Positions 9,463 to 54,967 of a stretch of 64,000 bases of DNA are shown here, piece after piece; position 1 is the first letter of the stretch, and each line of letters begins with the position of its first letter. Both the position numbers and the translations under genes were made by a program. Source of the stretch: a bacterium (lineage in GTDB: Bacteria; Patescibacteriota; Patescibacteriia; UBA1558; S5-K13); contig DAORGW010000001.1 in the NCBI GenBank assembly GCA_035356975.1, forward strand, positions 4,951-68,950. The letters run 5' to 3'. The notes below the pieces were generated by a model, which made no database searches, was not told the DNA's origin, and saw nothing but the letters and a program-made list of their open reading frames with translations.

Positions 9463-10446
9463 TTAGTTTTTATCGATTATATTTTCAAAAAATTCATTCA
9501 TTATTTCTTTTTTTAACATTTCTCTAATTTGGATTCTGTTTTTTGTTTGTCCTAGAATCCAGGAGAGTTTTGCATTTAAACACTCTGGTGTAATATTGCT
9601 TATTGTTACAATTGTGTGTTTGAAAAAATCTTTTGCAAAACCAACTTGATTATAAAAGATTATAATTTTATTATTTTTCTGACCCAATTTATACAGCTCA
9701 ATTAATTTACTTCTTTCTGTGATTTGATTTTCCCACGCTTCAAAAATTATTGCATTTAGTCCATTGTCTTTTTCAAGTAATTCTTCTAAAATTTTTATTC
9801 CTGGAATTGTTTTGAAAAAAACAAAATGTCTATCAAATTTTGAATAATATTCGCTTTCTTTTAACTTGTGATTTTTATCTTCAATTGATAATCCAAAATC
9901 AATTCTTGCAATATATTGTTTATTTACGGAATCAAAAATATTTAATCCTAATAATTCTGTTCTTTTTAGTCTTGTTGGACATATTACTCTACTTCCATAA
10001 ATTACACTAACCCTATTTATTTTACTCTCAACCAATTGAAAGGCATTTATCAGGTTTGCTTTAAATGACATATCGGGAATAATTTGAGTTTGTTTTTCAA
10101 TCGTATTTGCACCTGTTATTATTATTGGTTTTTCGGGAGATTGAATTTGCCAGAAAATTGTGTTTGCAAGCATTGGGATGGAGTCAACATCATGAAGAAT
10201 TATAATTCCATCATACTTTGGAAGATTTTCGGAAATTGTTATAAGTAGCTCTGTTACGTTTTCTTTTGAAAGTAGGTCTTTATTTTTGTCTATAACAGTA
10301 TAGTCAATGTCAGCCATAATTGATAATTCTGGAATTAATTTTAGCCAATCATATATATCTTCGTATTTTTCTACAAATTTAAGGTCAGTCTTTTTATCAT
10401 AAAGACCAGATCCTCCGTAAAATATTAAAAATACTTTTTTCACCAC
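9463..10446 (-). CDS. Asparaginase-fold protein with degenerate catalytic residues (probable pseudo-asparaginase)
   Basis: YDGIIILHDVDSIPMLANTIFWQIQSPEKPIIITGAN aligns to the type I asparaginase YDGFVILHGTDTM....KPVIVTGSQ region. The N-terminal FYGGSG sits in place of the TGGTIG nucleophile motif, so both catalytic Thr appear lost. Confidence 0.45.
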   Translation of the reverse strand: MVKKVFLIFYGGSGLYDKKTDLKFVEKYEDIYDWLKLIPELSIMADIDYTVIDKNKDLLSKENVTELLITISENLPKYDGIIILHDVDSIPMLANTIFWQIQSPEKPIIITGANTIEKQTQIIPDMSFKANLINAFQLVESKINRVSVIYGSRVICPTRLKRTELLGLNIFDSVNKQYIARIDFGLSIEDKNHKLKESEYYSKFDRHFVFFKTIPGIKILEELLEKDNGLNAIIFEAWENQITERSKLIELYKLGQKNNKIIIFYNQVGFAKDFFKHTIVTISNITPECLNAKLSWILGQTKNRIQIREMLKKEIMNEFFENIIDKN

Positions 10447-10538: not shown

Positions 10539-11222
10539 TTAGTCTTTTTTGAATAATAAATAGGCAATTGAGAAATTCATTATTAGTATAAATATGGGCC
10601 CCAACCAGAAAAATTTAAATATATTTATATGTATTAAATACCAATCAAAGTAAAATCCCAAAATAAAAGACACCATTGTTCCAAATATTACAATAAATAC
10701 TCTTTTTTTATTAATACCTTGTGAATTTATATATTTCATAACTAAAATATAATACGCATAGAAAAGCATTAATGAAAATAAAATCCCATATATTAAATGC
10801 AATGTTGAATCTGGTATATATGATATTTGATTATTTTCTATGTAGATGTTTGTAACCATTTGATCAGAAAATAAAATATAAAGAGTTATTATAGATAGAA
10901 TAAATAATAATGCTTTAAACACTATTAAAATTTTATTTTTTACTGTATATAAAAAATAAACTGAAAACATAAAAAAATTTATTAAAATTAGTGTGCCCGT
11001 TGCATATGTTAGATTACTCAAAATTTTATAAATACTATTATTTTTTATAACAGAAAGTCCAGCTATATTAATTGACCAAAAAAAAGCACTAATACACAAC
11101 AAGGAAAAATACCTTGAAAATTTTTCCCTACCGTTATTTTTTTTCATTATTATAAATCCGATAGCAATATTTATTGTTGCAGTTAAGAAGATTACCCCAA
11201 ACTTTAACCATTGTATATTCAT
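10539..11222 (-). CDS. Polytopic membrane protein, hypothetical
   Basis: About 6-7 hydrophobic segments and no recognisable soluble domain. Confidence 0.4.
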   Translation of the reverse strand: MNIQWLKFGVIFLTATINIAIGFIIMKKNNGREKFSRYFSLLCISAFFWSINIAGLSVIKNNSIYKILSNLTYATGTLILINFFMFSVYFLYTVKNKILIVFKALLFILSIITLYILFSDQMVTNIYIENNQISYIPDSTLHLIYGILFSLMLFYAYYILVMKYINSQGINKKRVFIVIFGTMVSFILGFYFDWYLIHINIFKFFWLGPIFILIMNFSIAYLLFKKD

Positions 11223-21381: not shown

Positions 21382-21639
21382 CTAATTAAATTTACACCCT
21401 TCTTTTCTTAAAATTTCAATTTTTTTCATCTCTCCCCTGTTATATCCGCCAATTTTTCCATCAGATCTTATTACTCTATGACATGGAATTTTTGGATCAT
21501 AATTTTTATTTAAAATATTGCCTACAGCTCGGTAGGCTCGAGGCTTACCGACTGCAATAGCGACTTCTTTGTAAGTCATTACTTCTCCTTTTGGAATCTT
21601 GGAAACAATTTTATATACTTCTTCAGAAAATTTGGACAT
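21382..21639 (-). CDS. Methylated-DNA--protein-cysteine methyltransferase (MGMT/Ogt) DNA-binding domain protein
   Basis: IPCHRVIRSDGKIGGY contains the PCHRV active-site Cys motif. 85 aa. Confidence 0.8.
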   Translation of the reverse strand: MSKFSEEVYKIVSKIPKGEVMTYKEVAIAVGKPRAYRAVGNILNKNYDPKIPCHRVIRSDGKIGGYNRGEMKKIEILRKEGCKFN

Positions 21640-34486: not shown

Positions 34487-34855
34487 TCATTTTGTTCTTA
34501 AAGAACTTATTAATTTATTTAGCATTTTATGAATTATCACTATCTTTTCTATTATTTCTTTTAACTTTTCTCGTGTTATATAATTTAAATCCATTGATAC
34601 AAAAACTTGACTTTGTAATTCTATTTAAAGAACCAAGTGCTATTCTATAAAAATATATCTTATCTCTGTGTGATATTCTTCCAAATCCTTCTCTTATGTT
34701 TGATATTATAGATCCGAAGATCTTCTCATTTGATTTTTTAATGAAAATAATTCATCTTTTGGAAAGTTTTTGGTTATTTTGTAAATTTCTAAAACTAAAA
34801 CTCTCCCATGTTTCCAAACATTGAAGTTTTCAAAATTCAAAAAATCGCCTTTCAT
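34487..34855 (-). pseudogene. Four-helix-bundle protein (23S rRNA intervening-sequence protein family, TIGR02436-like) disrupted by about two frameshifts
   Basis: Three frames together give MKGDFLNFENFNVWKHGRVLVLEIYKITKNFPKDELFSLKNQMRRSS / SIISNIREGFGRISHRDKIYFYRIALGSLNRITKSSFCIN / DLNYITREKLKEIIEKIVIIHKMLNKLISSLRTK. This matches the family consensus (FPKEE.Y.LTSQLRRAA.SI.SNIAEG....IA.GS..E..TQL.IA..LGYI...E......I.KML..LI.SL). No minus-strand ORF of at least 60 aa is listed here. Confidence 0.55.
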
Positions 34856-34996: not shown

Positions 34997-36046
34997 TCAA
35001 ATTTTATTTTTCAATACACTTTCAATAAAATTCAATATTTCTCCATCAAGTACTCTTTGAGTATCACTTGTTTCATATTTACTGCGTAAATCCTTTACCA
35101 TTTTGTATGGATGAAGAACATAAGATCTAATTTGATTTCCCCAGGCAGCTTGTTTTATTTCTCCCTTTATTTTTTTCTTTTCTTCGTCTGATTTTTCTTC
35201 GTAATATTTTGCAAGTTTAGATTTCAAATATTTCATTGCAGTTTCTTTGTTTTGTGATTGAGACCTTTGGTTTTGACATGTTACAACAATTCCAGTTGGA
35301 ATATGTGTGATTCTAACCGCAGAATCAGTTGTGTTTACATGTTGACCACCTGCGCCGGATGCTCGGTAAGTATCAATTTTTAAATCCTTTTCATTTATTT
35401 CTACTTCGATATCTTCAATTTCGGGAAAAACATTTACCATTGCAAATGAAGTGTGCCTAGCATTGTCAGCGTCAAATGGTGAAAGACGAACTAATCTGTG
35501 AACCCCATCCTCGGCTTTTAGATATCCATAAACATAATTACCTGTAATTTCTATTGTTATACTTTTATATCCAGCTTCTTCGCCTTTGTTTTCATCAATA
35601 ATTTGCGTATCCCAATTCATTTTTTCTGCGAACCTTAAATACATTCTAAGCAACACTTCTACCCAATCTTGGGATTCTGTGCCACCCGCTCCCGCAAAAA
35701 TATTTATAATTGCATTTTTGTCATCATATTTATCTCTAAAAAGTAATTTTATTTCAAATGATTTTAATTTTTTTTCTAAATCATAAATTTTTTGTATTTC
35801 AGTTTTTTCTGAGAGTTCATTAATTTCTTTTTCTAGTGAATTAATTGTTGTAATTTCACTTTCCAAAAATTTTAATTTTTGTGATAATTTTTTTGCATTT
35901 TCTTGATTAGTCCAAAAATTAGAATCAGACATTTTATTTTGAATTTCACTAATTTCTTTTTCATATTTTTTTAAATCAAAAAATGGTTTTAGTTTTTCGA
36001 AGCCAATTTGTAATTGTTTAATTTTGTCTTGCAATTCTTGATCCAT
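34997..36046 (-). CDS. prfB: Peptide chain release factor 2, uninterrupted ORF
   Basis: SPF tripeptide and GGQ motif (GAGGQHVNTTDSAVR). 349 aa with no in-frame UGA. Confidence 0.9.
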   Translation of the reverse strand: MDQELQDKIKQLQIGFEKLKPFFDLKKYEKEISEIQNKMSDSNFWTNQENAKKLSQKLKFLESEITTINSLEKEINELSEKTEIQKIYDLEKKLKSFEIKLLFRDKYDDKNAIINIFAGAGGTESQDWVEVLLRMYLRFAEKMNWDTQIIDENKGEEAGYKSITIEITGNYVYGYLKAEDGVHRLVRLSPFDADNARHTSFAMVNVFPEIEDIEVEINEKDLKIDTYRASGAGGQHVNTTDSAVRITHIPTGIVVTCQNQRSQSQNKETAMKYLKSKLAKYYEEKSDEEKKKIKGEIKQAAWGNQIRSYVLHPYKMVKDLRSKYETSDTQRVLDGEILNFIESVLKNKI

Positions 36047-36157
36047 TGATTTTTTGATTTAAAAGGGGTTATGATTAAATTATAAAGCATGTTTGTAATT
36101 TATCATAGATTTTTTTTGGTAGCAACTGAGTGGAGTCAATGCTCAGTAGGAGGAAAA

Positions 36158-36331
36158 ATGGGAGAAAACAGAAACAGAGACAGGAGGAACAACAAGAGAA
36201 AGCGCGAACAGAGAAAAGTGTTTGGTCACAGTTCAAATGAAACAAAGACCAATCAAGTGAGAATTCACAAACAGAAAAAACACAGACACAATAAGAGTGA
36301 TAAAAAATATCACCAAGGAGGCACACATTGA
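36158..36331 (+). CDS. Candidate small, highly basic protein (57 aa, R/K/H-rich)
   Basis: gtaggaggaaaaATG is a perfect Shine-Dalgarno at ideal spacing. MGENRNRDRRNNKRKREQRKVFGHSSNETKTNQVRIHKQKKHRHNKSDKKYHQGGTH. A strong hairpin terminator follows immediately. Confidence 0.35.
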   Translation: MGENRNRDRRNNKRKREQRKVFGHSSNETKTNQVRIHKQKKHRHNKSDKKYHQGGTH

Positions 36332-36352
36332 AGACTTATTTTAATCCCAACT

Positions 36353-36392
36353 AAAAAGGGTTTGCTATATTTAACAAAGCAGACCCTTTTCA
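36353..36392. terminator. Intrinsic terminator hairpin (11-bp stem, one G-U pair)
   Basis: aagggtttgct-atatttaacaa-agcagaccctt, flanked by A-run and T-run. It could serve the small plus-strand ORF and the minus-strand hydrogenase operon. Confidence 0.45.
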
Positions 36393-36395
36393 TTT

Positions 36396-36510
36396 ACCAT
36401 TTTCTATTTTCAATTTCCAATTGATTTACTATTTATAAATTTTTCAATTGTAAATAAATAATAAATAGCCAAATAGAAAATCAATTCAAAATAAAAAATA
36501 ATAAATTGAA
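36396..36510. repeat. AT-rich ~115-bp intergenic repeat element (family 2), copy 2, in inverted orientation
   Basis: Its reverse complement aligns at about 75% identity with 28445-28556. It abuts the hydrogenase stop codon. Confidence 0.5.
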
Positions 36511-36512
36511 AA

Positions 36513-38207
36513 TTATAGACTGCATTTGGATTTATCAGAATACTTTGTGTGCAATAATTTTTTTGATAATTTTCCAAGTGGTTTTCCCAAAAATTCCATG
36601 TAAATTTTTATAATATTTGGGTTTTTATGGGCTTGTCTGAATTCCAAAGATTTATCTTCTTCATAAGTTGCTTTTGCTCTTTTTCGTATTATTTCCATGG
36701 TTGTTGGCTTTGGTTGTCCTCCACCACCTATGCATCCCCCTGGACATGCCATAATTTCGATAAAATGATACTTTTTAGGCATTTTCTTTATGATTTCAAG
36801 TATTTTACGGGCATTTGATAAACTGTGTATTACAGCTAAATTTAGGGTTGTATTTCCGATTTTTATACTTGCTTCTCTGAATCCTGAATCACCTCTTAAA
36901 ATTTTAAAATCTATCTTTGAATATTCTCTGCCAGTCATAAAATAATGAGCTGTTCTTATGGCTGATTCCATAACTCCGCCAGATGAGGCAAAAATTGCTC
37001 CTCCACCAGAACCCGGCCCCATTGGATTATCAAATTGTAATTTCCTTTCATCTTTTAGATCAATTCCAAAACTTTTTATGAGTTTCGCGCACTCTCTTGT
37101 TGTTATTACAAAATCAACATCACGGACTCCGTCAACCGACATTTCATCACGACATGATTCATATTTTTTTGCTGTGCATGGCATTATACTTACTAGTATA
37201 ATATCGCGTGGATTAATTTTTGCTTTTTGTGCATAATAAGTTTTTATTAGTGCACCAAACATTTGGTGGGGTGACTTACAGCTTGATAAGTGATTTAATA
37301 ATTCAGGATAAAATGTTTCAATAAAATTGACCCAGCCAGGACAGCATGATGTTATAAGTGGCAAATATTTATTTTGTTTGATTCTCTCAATTAATTCACT
37401 GGCTTCTTCCATTATTGTAAGATCAGCTCCGAAATTTGTATCAAAAACTTTTTTAAAGCCAGCCTTTTTAAGTGCGCCTACCATTTGTCCGGTTACGGAA
37501 ATCCCAGGCTCTAATCCGAATTCTTCTCCCAGTGCAACTCTAATTGAGGGAGCGGTTTGTGCTATTACATGTTTCTTTGGATCTTTTAATAATTCTTTAA
37601 TTTCTTTATAGAATTCTTTTTCCCTGATTGCATTTGTTGGACAAACTAGTGAACACTGACCACAACCAACACAGTTTGTGTCAGCCAATTTTTTATTTAA
37701 TGATTTTGAAACAACGGTTGCGTTAGCTCTGTTTTTATAAGAAATTGCATTTACTGTTTGAAGTTCCCTACATTTTTGTATGCATCTTCCACATAAAATA
37801 CATTTTTCAAAATCCATTACAATATCATGAGAAGAGTCGTCTAATTCTTCTGAAATATGTGGTTTAAATTTTAATTCCTCAATGTCTGGTAAATTTTCTA
37901 ATTTTAACCATTTTCTAAATTCTTCTTCTTTTTCAAAATTACATCCTATTAATTGAGCATTTATTTTTCTTTGTTTCTGTATCTCAGGATTATTTGTCTC
38001 AATTATCATGCCCTCACAAATTTCGTTATTACAACTCGTTATAAATTTTCCGTTAGCCATAACTACACATATGCCACATCTCCCCTCTGACCTTAGATCT
38101 GGATGGTAACAAAGAGTGGGAATTTTTATTCCACTTTTTAGAGCCGCTTCAAGTATCGTGCATTTTTTATTTATTTTTATTTTTTTACCGTCAATCGTTA
38201 TTTGCAT
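36513..38207 (-). CDS. [FeFe]-hydrogenase catalytic subunit (HndD/HydA-like) with N-terminal 2Fe-2S and 4Fe-4S domains
   Basis: H-cluster motifs TSCCPGW, MPCTAKKYE and EIMACPGGCIGGGGQP. Confidence 0.85.
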   Translation of the reverse strand: MQITIDGKKIKINKKCTILEAALKSGIKIPTLCYHPDLRSEGRCGICVVMANGKFITSCNNEICEGMIIETNNPEIQKQRKINAQLIGCNFEKEEEFRKWLKLENLPDIEELKFKPHISEELDDSSHDIVMDFEKCILCGRCIQKCRELQTVNAISYKNRANATVVSKSLNKKLADTNCVGCGQCSLVCPTNAIREKEFYKEIKELLKDPKKHVIAQTAPSIRVALGEEFGLEPGISVTGQMVGALKKAGFKKVFDTNFGADLTIMEEASELIERIKQNKYLPLITSCCPGWVNFIETFYPELLNHLSSCKSPHQMFGALIKTYYAQKAKINPRDIILVSIMPCTAKKYESCRDEMSVDGVRDVDFVITTRECAKLIKSFGIDLKDERKLQFDNPMGPGSGGGAIFASSGGVMESAIRTAHYFMTGREYSKIDFKILRGDSGFREASIKIGNTTLNLAVIHSLSNARKILEIIKKMPKKYHFIEIMACPGGCIGGGGQPKPTTMEIIRKRAKATYEEDKSLEFRQAHKNPNIIKIYMEFLGKPLGKLSKKLLHTKYSDKSKCSL

Positions 38208-42493: not shown

Positions 42494-43378
42494 TTACCAA
42501 CCACCAGATGCACCTCCTCCTCCAGATCTTCCGCCACCAAAGCCTCCAAAACCACCTCCGAATCCACCTCCAGATCTTCCGCCACCCAAGAACCAAAATC
42601 CACCACCAGTTCCAGGTTTACCATTATTTTTTGAAACAGCATAATCAAATAATAGTCCTAGTATTGTTAAAATTATAGTAATTATTGTTCCTATTAATAA
42701 AGTACCAATTATTAATCCAATTATTGCGCCCAGTATCCCACCAATTACACCACCCAGCCAAAACGATTTTGTTTTACCAAGTAATCTAGCGAAAATATTA
42801 AGAAAAAAAATGAATATAGCAATAAAGAAAGATATGGTATTTTCTGTTATTTTTGAGTTTACTTTTGTTTGTGATGTTAGTTCTATTCCTTGTGTTGAGG
42901 AAATTATTTGATCAACGGCTTTATCTATGCCGCCATAATAATTATTGTTTCTAAATTCTGGCTTCATGGTTTCATCTATTATCCAAAAAGATTGCGCATC
43001 TGTTAAATACCCCTCCATTCCATAGCCGGTTTCAATTCTTATTTTTCTATCCTCTATTGAAATTAGAAGCAAAACTCCATTATCATTATTTTTTTTACCT
43101 ATTTTCCAGTCTTCAAATAATTTTACAGCAAAATTTTCTATTGTATCGCCCTCTAGACTTTGAATTATTACTACACTAATTTCATTTGTTGTTTGTTTTT
43201 CAAAATCAGATAATTTTTGCTCTAAAGATTGTTTTTCTTGTGTGGTTAATGTATTTGTATAGTCATTAACAAACCCAGTTGGATTTCCTGGGTTTTGATA
43301 TGCATGTGTCTTATTAAAAATTATCAAAATAAAGATACACAAAAAATATATATTTATTTTGAAAACATTTTTTATCAT
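42494..43378 (-). CDS. TPM-domain (YgcG-like) membrane protein with a Gly-rich C-terminus
   Basis: TPM phosphatase-like fold region (VNDYTNTLTTQEKQSLEQKL...VLLLISIEDRKIRIETGYG), a TM segment, then GGGFGGGFGGFGGG. Confidence 0.7.
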   Translation of the reverse strand: MIKNVFKINIYFLCIFILIIFNKTHAYQNPGNPTGFVNDYTNTLTTQEKQSLEQKLSDFEKQTTNEISVVIIQSLEGDTIENFAVKLFEDWKIGKKNNDNGVLLLISIEDRKIRIETGYGMEGYLTDAQSFWIIDETMKPEFRNNNYYGGIDKAVDQIISSTQGIELTSQTKVNSKITENTISFFIAIFIFFLNIFARLLGKTKSFWLGGVIGGILGAIIGLIIGTLLIGTIITIILTILGLLFDYAVSKNNGKPGTGGGFWFLGGGRSGGGFGGGFGGFGGGRSGGGGASGGW

Positions 43379-54766: not shown

Positions 54767-54967
54767 ATGGAGGAAATCATGAAAGTTTATCCAGGTTTGA
54801 GTCAAACATCTCCAAGAGTTATTTGCCCTGTTTGTGGAGTTGTTTTAGATGATGGTGGTACAAAGACTCAATCCGAAACGACCGAAGTGTGTTCGGAGTG
54901 CAAAAAAAAACAAACAGAAAAAATCCCCAGGGTTAGTTTGGCCCCGGAAAGTAATAAAAACATTTAG
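54767..54967 (+). CDS. Small zinc-ribbon protein (66 aa), hypothetical
   Basis: CPVCG...CSECKK cysteine pairs. Own promoter, Shine-Dalgarno and a strong terminator. Higher GC than its surroundings. Confidence 0.45.
   Translation: MEEIMKVYPGLSQTSPRVICPVCGVVLDDGGTKTQSETTEVCSECKKKQTEKIPRVSLAPESNKNI

Follow-up and report, generated by a model that had tools for sequence, protein, structure and literature searches.

Introduction

RMF, Sra/bS22 and bTHX are small basic ribosome-associated proteins that are restricted to particular lineages and have no hydrophobic core. ArfA of E. coli and BrfA of B. subtilis are RF2-dependent ribosome rescue factors of about 55-70 aa with positively charged regions; they are lineage-restricted, small orphan families without mutual sequence similarity, and their mRNAs are non-stop messages that are truncated inside the open reading frame (PMC6881298). 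In Bacteroidia, the autoregulation of rpsU (bS21) involves a strong Shine-Dalgarno (SD) sequence on the gene of a small basic protein in a genome in which SD sequences are rare (PMC9976891, PMC13000453), and a survey of CPR ribosomes found bS21 to be frequently absent and the anti-SD to be missing in about half of Parcubacteria (PMC9297842). The programmed +1 frameshift cassette of prfB comprises an SD-like element, CUU and UGA (PMC10798248).

In Patescibacteria the ribosome is reduced and biogenesis factors are few, and most small proteins specific to the lineage are unannotated or listed as "hypothetical". Here we describe a mini-gene for a 57-aa basic protein that lies beside prfB in a 64-kb stretch of Patescibacteria DNA, the whole of which is referred to below as the window. 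Our preferred reading, to which we assign a probability of roughly 0.55, is that of a genuine prfB-linked gene encoding a ribosome- or RNA-binding, lineage-specific accessory protein whose synthesis is tied to SD pairing and RF2. A product that is ribosome-associated or RF2-linked would be a new component of the CPR translation apparatus; otherwise, the locus documents a new small-protein family with a structured mRNA that is useful for annotation.

Results

A Purine-Rich Mini-Gene for a Strongly Basic Protein

34997-36046, minus strand: prfB (RF2, with the SPF motif), a single open reading frame without programmed frameshift and without SD, stop TGA.
36158-36331, plus strand: mini-gene for a 57-aa basic protein, recognised from homologues and a coding signature; AlphaFold2 gives two low-confidence helices.

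The mini-gene occupies the spacer between prfB and an [FeFe]-hydrogenase gene (36513-38207, minus strand), and its 57 codons run from the ATG at 36158 to the TGA at 36329-36331. The original prediction of a 57-aa ORF with SD, ATG, stop and a following hairpin is borne out by the sequence, with a correction to the left-hand boundary of the feature, which had been given as 36089-36400: position 36089 is an upstream in-frame ATG that would open an 80-aa ORF, and the conserved start is the SD-led ATG at 36158. The extreme basicity also stands (pI 11.5, net charge +14), although the number of basic residues is 25 of 57 (10 K, 9 R, 6 H) and not the approximately 23 counted at first. The protein is without a hydrophobic core, in agreement with the hydrophobic stretches having been reported absent, and the coding strand, noted earlier as strikingly A/G-rich, proved to be the most purine-rich 174 nt within the window (0.75 vs. 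a median of 0.44). The G+C content of the mini-gene is approximately 0.4, which is the coding level, with adjoining spacers at 0.14-0.24. Because T-poor DNA has few stop codons, the ORF by itself is weak evidence of a gene; it is taken to be more than chance because it is conserved in other genomes.

Searches with the product returned no known family. Pfam gave no match at E<=10 with all 11 members, NCBIfam gave none with the single protein or with all members, and a profile search of PDB sequences produced only a spurious match to mS89 (E=4.6). The ArfA and BrfA chains in the PDB and the Pfam ArfA family showed no sequence similarity to the 57-aa protein, BLASTP against the S21 proteins of E. 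coli and B. subtilis gave nothing meaningful, and BLASTP against E. coli RMF and Sra gave no similarity. Across Pfam, NCBIfam, the PDB and these reference sequences, there was no similarity to ribosomal proteins, rescue factors, hibernation factors or other families, and in the literature on small basic or ribosome-associated CPR proteins we found no description of the family. By these comparisons the product represents an undescribed small-protein family of 51-61 aa with about 44% Lys/Arg/His. The AlphaFold2 model consists of two helices at low confidence (pLDDT 61, pTM 0.23), and the protein is probably disordered or helical until bound.

Homologues and Linkage to prfB

A word-indexed protein search provided the first homologue, a "hypothetical protein" of 57 aa and 77% identity from a Patescibacteria MAG, whose locus (L001) has the same order of prfB, mini-gene and hydrogenase as the window. 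An RF2 scan of species-representative genomes then yielded L003, where RF2 is 85% identical and the mini-gene product has 58 aa and 60% identity with one in-frame extra codon. Once 1.84 billion representatives had been searched exhaustively with HMMER, a profile search had been added and mis-called N-termini had been trimmed, the family comprised ten clusters of 51-61 aa, annotated in their sources as "hypothetical protein" only.

Wherever the upstream side of a locus is visible, the mini-gene is divergent from prfB, which was identified in related loci by its PCRF and RF-1 Pfam domains; L092 and L093 (P0002 lineage) start too near the mini-gene to show that side. The neighbor on the other side varies: some loci have the hydrogenase there, some an uncharacterised gene of 73-98 aa, and others a different gene again. 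Across the family loci, RF2 ranges from 90% down to about 50-66% identity with that of the window. None of 79 more distant prfB loci (RF2 <=54% identical) has a small basic ORF adjoining prfB, and these next-nearest genomes, which include Komeilibacteria, Paceibacteria, Moranbacteria and others, are without a comparable ORF near prfB. A metagenome scan with a DNA pattern (hairpin plus GGAGGC) recovered only the lineages already known, and a scan with back-translated peptide patterns was swamped by low-complexity matches and added no new lineage. On this sampling the family is rare and confined to one narrow Patescibacteria clade, mostly from anaerobic digesters. Within so narrow a clade, the linkage to prfB could equate to inherited synteny without functional meaning.

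The surroundings of the mini-gene differ among these genomes in several respects. The prfB stop codon is TGA in the window, L003 and L091, and TAA in L001, L083, L086 and L090. In L089 (3850-4900), prfB is found in several fragments on a contig of about 1.5 coverage, most likely a sequencing error; the mini-gene there is intact and identical to that of L086. The 73-98-aa gene located between the mini-gene and the next gene (L001 10197-10660, L094 1173-1469, L086 5369-5590) has a CPxC motif and no Pfam match, the L001 and L094 versions being 60% identical and that of L086 more weakly similar. In L001 the terminator hairpin occurs on either side of it in nearly identical form, with matches at 10202-10228 and 10625-10651, and because these two copies bracket the gene, the arrangement in the window may derive from a deletion between them. 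On the far side of prfB, the 570-nt prfB-comEC spacer of the window holds a 49-aa ORF (34706-34855, minus strand) whose match to the 23S rRNA-intervening-sequence protein family (PF05635, E=2e-11) is limited to positions 1-39 of 106 and which is probably a truncated remnant; the same spacer contains GIY-YIG and 304-aa genes in L086 and a 76-aa gene in L001.

Evidence for Translation and Purifying Selection

The reading frame is kept in 10 of the 11 loci through indels which are several, independent, all multiples of three and bounded by homology on both sides. Among the 10 distinct sequences, mean pS was 0.68 and mean pN 0.29 in the mini-gene frame (pN/pS 0.42), whereas pN/pS was 1.27 and 0.91 when computed for the two alternative frames. 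The mean pairwise difference by codon position was 0.29, 0.28 and 0.48, and invariant columns were distributed 22/22/5 over the three positions. Pairwise Nei-Gojobori estimates for the window against L001 and L003 gave a dS for the mini-gene close to that for prfB (0.54 and 0.56 vs. L001; 0.76 and 0.81 vs. L003), with dN/dS of 0.20-0.43 for the mini-gene; prfB stood at about 0.10 and the hydrogenase at 0.14. The ATG is conserved. An 83-aa ORF antisense to the mini-gene (36075-36326, minus strand) is broken up in L003 and not conserved there.

Since an in-frame synonymous excess, third-position variability and indels of 3n are the signature of translation, we conclude that the mini-gene is translated. 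By these measures of sequence evolution it is a genuine protein-coding gene, under purifying selection and vertically inherited. The homologue search with dN/dS analysis that had been proposed as a check thus supplied 10 distinct homologues in which synonymous change far exceeds non-synonymous change, and the small-protein alternative of the original prediction holds as to coding status. Loss of the frame in close relatives, or absence of the region from them, had been named as the observations that would speak against it; the relatives have the region and keep the frame. The strict linkage to prfB, the covarying hairpin at the 5' end, the invariant GGAGGC and TGA and the scarcity of SDs in the genome, all described here, had no place in the original prediction.

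Locus L091 (4880-4960) presents a separate case. Its N-terminal stretch, MGENRS, is out of frame with the remainder owing to a 1-nt length difference in an A-run, and its SD and 5' hairpin are degraded as well. The contig comes from a single run, and the locus represents an assembly error or, alternatively, a copy in decay.

Promoters, 5' Stem-Loop, and Shine-Dalgarno Sequences

36046-36106, both strands: interdigitated divergent promoter region, from a consensus scan, with blocks conserved across loci.
36125-36147, plus strand: stem-loop of 7 bp with a 9-nt loop in the 5'-UTR, from covariation and RNAalifold, ending 1 nt before the SD.
36148-36153, plus strand: Shine-Dalgarno AGGAGG, 4 nt before the ATG; GGAGG present in 10 of 11 loci.
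36182-36187, plus strand: internal AGGAGG at codons Arg9-Arg10 (AGG AGG), kept in 6 of 10 distinct homologues.

The candidate prfB promoter on the minus strand has ATGATA as -35 (36106-36101) and TATAAT as -10 (36084-36079). The candidate mini-gene promoter on the plus strand is TTGATT (36046-36051) and TATGAT (36070-36075), with TATCAT (36101-36106) as an alternative candidate -10. These candidate promoters interlock, each -10 lying in or next to the -35 or start site of the other gene, and because they interdigitate, prfB and the mini-gene may compete for RNA polymerase. On the minus strand the start context of prfB (region 34997-36072), AAAAAAUCAAUG, is conserved across the clade and has no SD; in the window the prfB start is preceded by AAAAAAUCA.

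In the 5' stem-loop, 6 of the 7 pairs have changes on both sides, as seen in the stem variants CUGAG/CUCAG, CCAAG/CUUGG, ACAAGC/GCUUGU, UCGAG/CUCGA, UCAGAC/GUCUGA and AGAGC/GCUCU. Overall, 91% of alignment cells are paired, compared with 24-36% when the partner is slid, and the U.G pairs fit the plus strand only. A covariance model of this element detected no second copy within the 64-kb window. We considered whether its loop, AAUCAAUG in most homologues, and the prfB start AAAAAAUCAAUG form a shared operator, and rejected this: the shared 8-mer occurs at chance level (8 found vs. 8.8 expected), the window's own loop reads GUCAAUG, unlike that of most homologues, and the loop and the prfB start region do not co-vary.

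Of the window's four AGGAGG hexamers on the plus strand, three fall within the approximately 170 nt of the mini-gene. The overall count of GGAGG in the window is at chance level (38 observed vs. 29 +/- 6 expected), and an SD-like motif of any kind precedes a plausible start in only about 10 of its 61 long ORFs. Among the genes with a clear SD are pyrB, pyrI, one for a PFOR subunit, a 65-aa gene resembling MGMT (21382-21579) and a 62-aa ORF that resembles a zinc ribbon (54779-54967). The internal copy in the mini-gene is of uncertain significance; its two AGG codons differ from the usual Arg codon of the gene, AGA. Elsewhere, on the minus strand at 42494-42600, six GGAGG in 60 nt encode the Gly-rich C-terminal tail GGGFGGGFGGFGGGRSGGGG, which comes after a hydrophobic segment in a 294-aa protein (42494-43378), and this local cluster is accounted for by the coding of the tail.

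An Intragenic Hairpin and a Conserved 3' Module

36297-36313, plus strand: intragenic hairpin GUGAUA-AAAAA-UAUCAC at codons 47-52, from covariation and RNAalifold.
36317-36322, plus strand: GGAGGC at Gly54-Gly55, a second SD-like element with invariant third positions.
36328-36354, plus strand: candidate coupled micro-ORF of 8 codons (MKTYFNPN) with a TTGA overlap, from reading-frame conservation; its translation is inferred.

The intragenic hairpin has 6 bp, and pairing is complete (100% of cells) in the ten sequences compared. In three loci a G-C pair is swapped to C-G, so that Asp48/His52 becomes His48/Asp52, and the third positions of its AGT and TAT codons are invariant. The swap is a single event and could equally be a protein-level exchange of Asp and His at i, i+4.

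The GGA and GGC codons that follow are found in every member and provide 2 of only five invariant third positions; the codon of Gly23, in contrast, varies among GGT, GGC and GGA. Exactly two variable codons separate GGAGGC from the TGA (TH, SH, KA, MH, IK, TK, TR, SK, NK). GGAGG thus lies 7 nt before the UGA, and its spacing to an NTG that overlaps the stop is 6 nt in 11 of 11 loci. The stop itself is TGA in all 11 loci, compared with 55 TAA, 4 TGA and 2 TAG among the window's 61 long ORFs; the coordinates place two of these four TGAs in ATGA-type overlaps with the next gene (2308/2311 and 27319/27322). Because synonymous sites are near saturation and an unconstrained stop would drift to TAA, we conclude that the TGA of the mini-gene is selected.

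The overlapping start of the candidate micro-ORF is TTG, GTG or ATG in 11 of 11 loci and never CTG. The terminal His codon of the mini-gene is always CAT; elsewhere in the gene CAC is favored over CAT by 23 to 12. The micro-ORF has 8 codons in nine of the 11 loci, 9 codons in L003 and an open end in L083, and its frame is free of premature stops throughout, while the +1 frame is interrupted early in 7 of 11 loci. In the window its TAA overlaps the first base of the terminator stem, and across loci the TAA lies 0-3 nt from that stem. The peptide sequence is not conserved. The micro-ORF may be incidental, given that its TAA is in an A-tract doubling as the minus-strand U-tract and that L083 is without a stop.

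Terminator and Overall RNA Structure

36354-36390, both strands: intrinsic terminator hairpin of 13 bp with an 11-nt loop, 90% paired in 11 loci.

The terminator that had been predicted after the ORF is present, with a stem of 13 bp where 11 bp had been stated. Positions 36354-36366 pair with 36378-36390, including four A-U pairs and one G.U, and the tails are U-rich on the plus strand and UUUUUA on the minus strand; across loci the G.U wobbles fit the plus strand. The hairpin has the features of a Rho-independent terminator, namely a G+C-containing stem-loop, a U-tract and a conserved position, and was missed by the consensus terminator scan because this allows loops of <=8 nt and the loop here has 11. 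With T/A runs on both sides, it can serve the convergent hydrogenase operon as well. The terminator sequence is unique within the window, and the TGA of the mini-gene precedes the stem in all 11 loci, with 22 nt between them in the window. From promoter and terminator together, a self-contained transcription unit of approximately 250-310 nt is predicted.

RNAalifold on the family returned three small hairpins only, the RNA being otherwise unstructured. Searches of Rfam 15 (the region at E<=10 and the whole window) gave no family at gathering threshold, the best match being a miRNA model on the terminator hairpin with 22.6 bits against a threshold of 120. A leader peptide or attenuator was rejected, as no regulated gene lies downstream on the same strand: the gene after the mini-gene is the convergent hydrogenase in the window, L003, L083 and L090. 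In L001, L086 and L094 the next same-strand gene has its own SD, accompanied in L001 and L086 by a TTGACA promoter-like hexamer.

Discussion

Proposed Role in Translation

We infer that the 57-aa product binds RNA, most likely the ribosome or rRNA, because it is highly charged, has no hydrophobic core and is modelled, at low confidence, as two helices, and because its gene neighbors a translation gene. In the proposed mechanism, the mini-gene would be transcribed from a promoter interlocked back-to-back with that of prfB and would end at the hairpin terminator. The 5' stem-loop would protect the 5' end and present the SD at the foot of its stem, and initiation would depend on SD/anti-SD pairing, which most genes of the organism appear not to use. 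Release would depend on RF2 alone because the stop is UGA. With a second SD and an NTG overlapping that UGA, terminating ribosomes would probably reinitiate on the 8-codon micro-ORF, which would carry them into the terminator stem, where they could affect read-through or 3'-end stability. The protein itself would bind RNA electrostatically and act as a lineage-specific accessory factor of translation.

Alternative Explanations

An RF2-linked factor is the alternative that survives best, although we consider it unlikely. It could be a convergent analogue of ArfA/BrfA that recruits RF2 to stalled ribosomes via the empty mRNA channel, or else a regulator of prfB, in which case the requirement for RF2 in its own release would create a feedback loop in a clade without prfB frameshift autoregulation. 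The size and positive charge of the product do resemble those of ArfA and BrfA (PMC6881298), but the absence of similarity to their PDB chains or to Pfam ArfA argues against a rescue factor, as does a Lys-His pair that is not conserved across the family; furthermore, with its stop 22 nt before the terminator, the mini-gene does not give a non-stop message, unlike arfA and brfA (PMC6881298). A factor of either kind finds encouragement in a mini-gene that always adjoins prfB divergently with interlocked candidate promoters, and in a prfB that lacks the frameshift in the window, yet no cis mechanism joins a divergent gene to prfB. Similarly, an RF2-only UGA that is invariant where 90% of window stops are TAA, together with a GGAGG 7 nt before it that approximates the frameshift cassette geometry (PMC10798248), would suit an RF2 link, but an NTG start that overlaps the UGA accounts for it just as well.

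A bolder version, in which an undescribed Patescibacteria translation factor acts via RF2 or the anti-SD and a sensor composed of SD, UGA and micro-ORF replaces the frameshift autoregulation of prfB, is in our judgment speculative and improbable. Such a factor might resemble ArfA/BrfA by convergence and assist rescue or termination, or it might be a modulator like bS21; if true, this would be another small orphan protein tuning termination or rescue.

We give still less weight to the proposal that the product is a bS21-like occluder of the anti-SD, which on the 30S platform would mask the 16S 3' tail and render ribosomes SD-blind, its own SD-led mRNA being preferred by ribosomes that lack it, as in the rpsU loop of Flavobacterium johnsoniae. 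In F. johnsoniae a strong SD precedes a single gene, rpsU, whose product is a small basic protein (PMC9976891, PMC13000453), and the mini-gene likewise has a perfect AGGAGG and further copies in an SD-poor genome. In Parcubacteria, bS21 is often absent (PMC9297842). However, pyrB, pyrI, the PFOR subunit and others have good SDs, indicating ribosomes that are not SD-blind, and the protein has no match to Ribosomal_S21.

Equally doubtful is a DNA-binding protein, either nucleoid-associated or a regulator of the shared prfB/mini-gene promoter region. The extreme positive charge would suit DNA as a ligand, but no DNA-binding fold or family is recognisable, and whereas the divergent layout with its strongly conserved intergenic region of approximately 110 bp resembles that of regulator/target pairs, the only conserved palindromes are the stems, which covary as RNA and contain G.U pairs.

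Finally, a purine-rich non-coding or regulatory RNA with an incidental ORF, for instance a sponge that titrates the anti-SD or a GGA-binding protein, which was the other alternative of the original prediction, would account for three AGGAGG within 170 nt and for RNA-level constraint on GGAGGC and two hairpins, but is rejected as very improbable in view of the coding signature (in-frame synonymous excess, third-position variability, 3n indels), the lack of an Rfam match, and an RNA that is predicted to be mostly unstructured and is poorly conserved in nucleotide sequence outside the codon pattern. We retain the accessory translation protein as the preferred reading, and note that a 57-aa gene under purifying selection was recognisable from sequence alone.

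Comparison with Known Systems

Judged by sequence and gene organisation, the mini-gene family belongs to none of the systems with which we compared it, although it shares features with each. The 57-aa protein is similar to ArfA and BrfA in size, charge and a connection to RF2; it differs in that its gene keeps a UGA stop upstream of the terminator and in that its basic residues occur all along the chain and are not gathered in a C-terminal tail. No linkage of arfA or brfA to prfB is known. The likeness to rpsU, a strong SD in an SD-poor genome, is one of logic and not of membership, as the protein is not homologous to bS21 and other genes of the window also use SDs.

The mini-gene recalls the prfB frameshift cassette in having GGAGG a few nucleotides upstream of an in-frame, RF2-only UGA at the RF2 locus. 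It is without the slippery CUU, however, the last sense codon being CAT, AAG, AAA, AGG or GCG; its +1 frame closes early in 7 of 11 loci; and the element lies outside prfB, at the 3' end of a gene that is distinct from it and divergent. The protein also resembles RMF, Sra/bS22 and bTHX in size, charge, absence of a hydrophobic core and lineage-restricted distribution, but has no match in Pfam, NCBIfam or the PDB, databases that would include them. Although the downstream ORF of the mini-gene has only 8 codons, encodes an unconserved peptide and ends at the terminator stem, the closest formal match for the 3' module is provided by ATGA-type coupled genes, in which, as here, an SD lies inside the 3' end of the upstream ORF and the next start overlaps its TGA.
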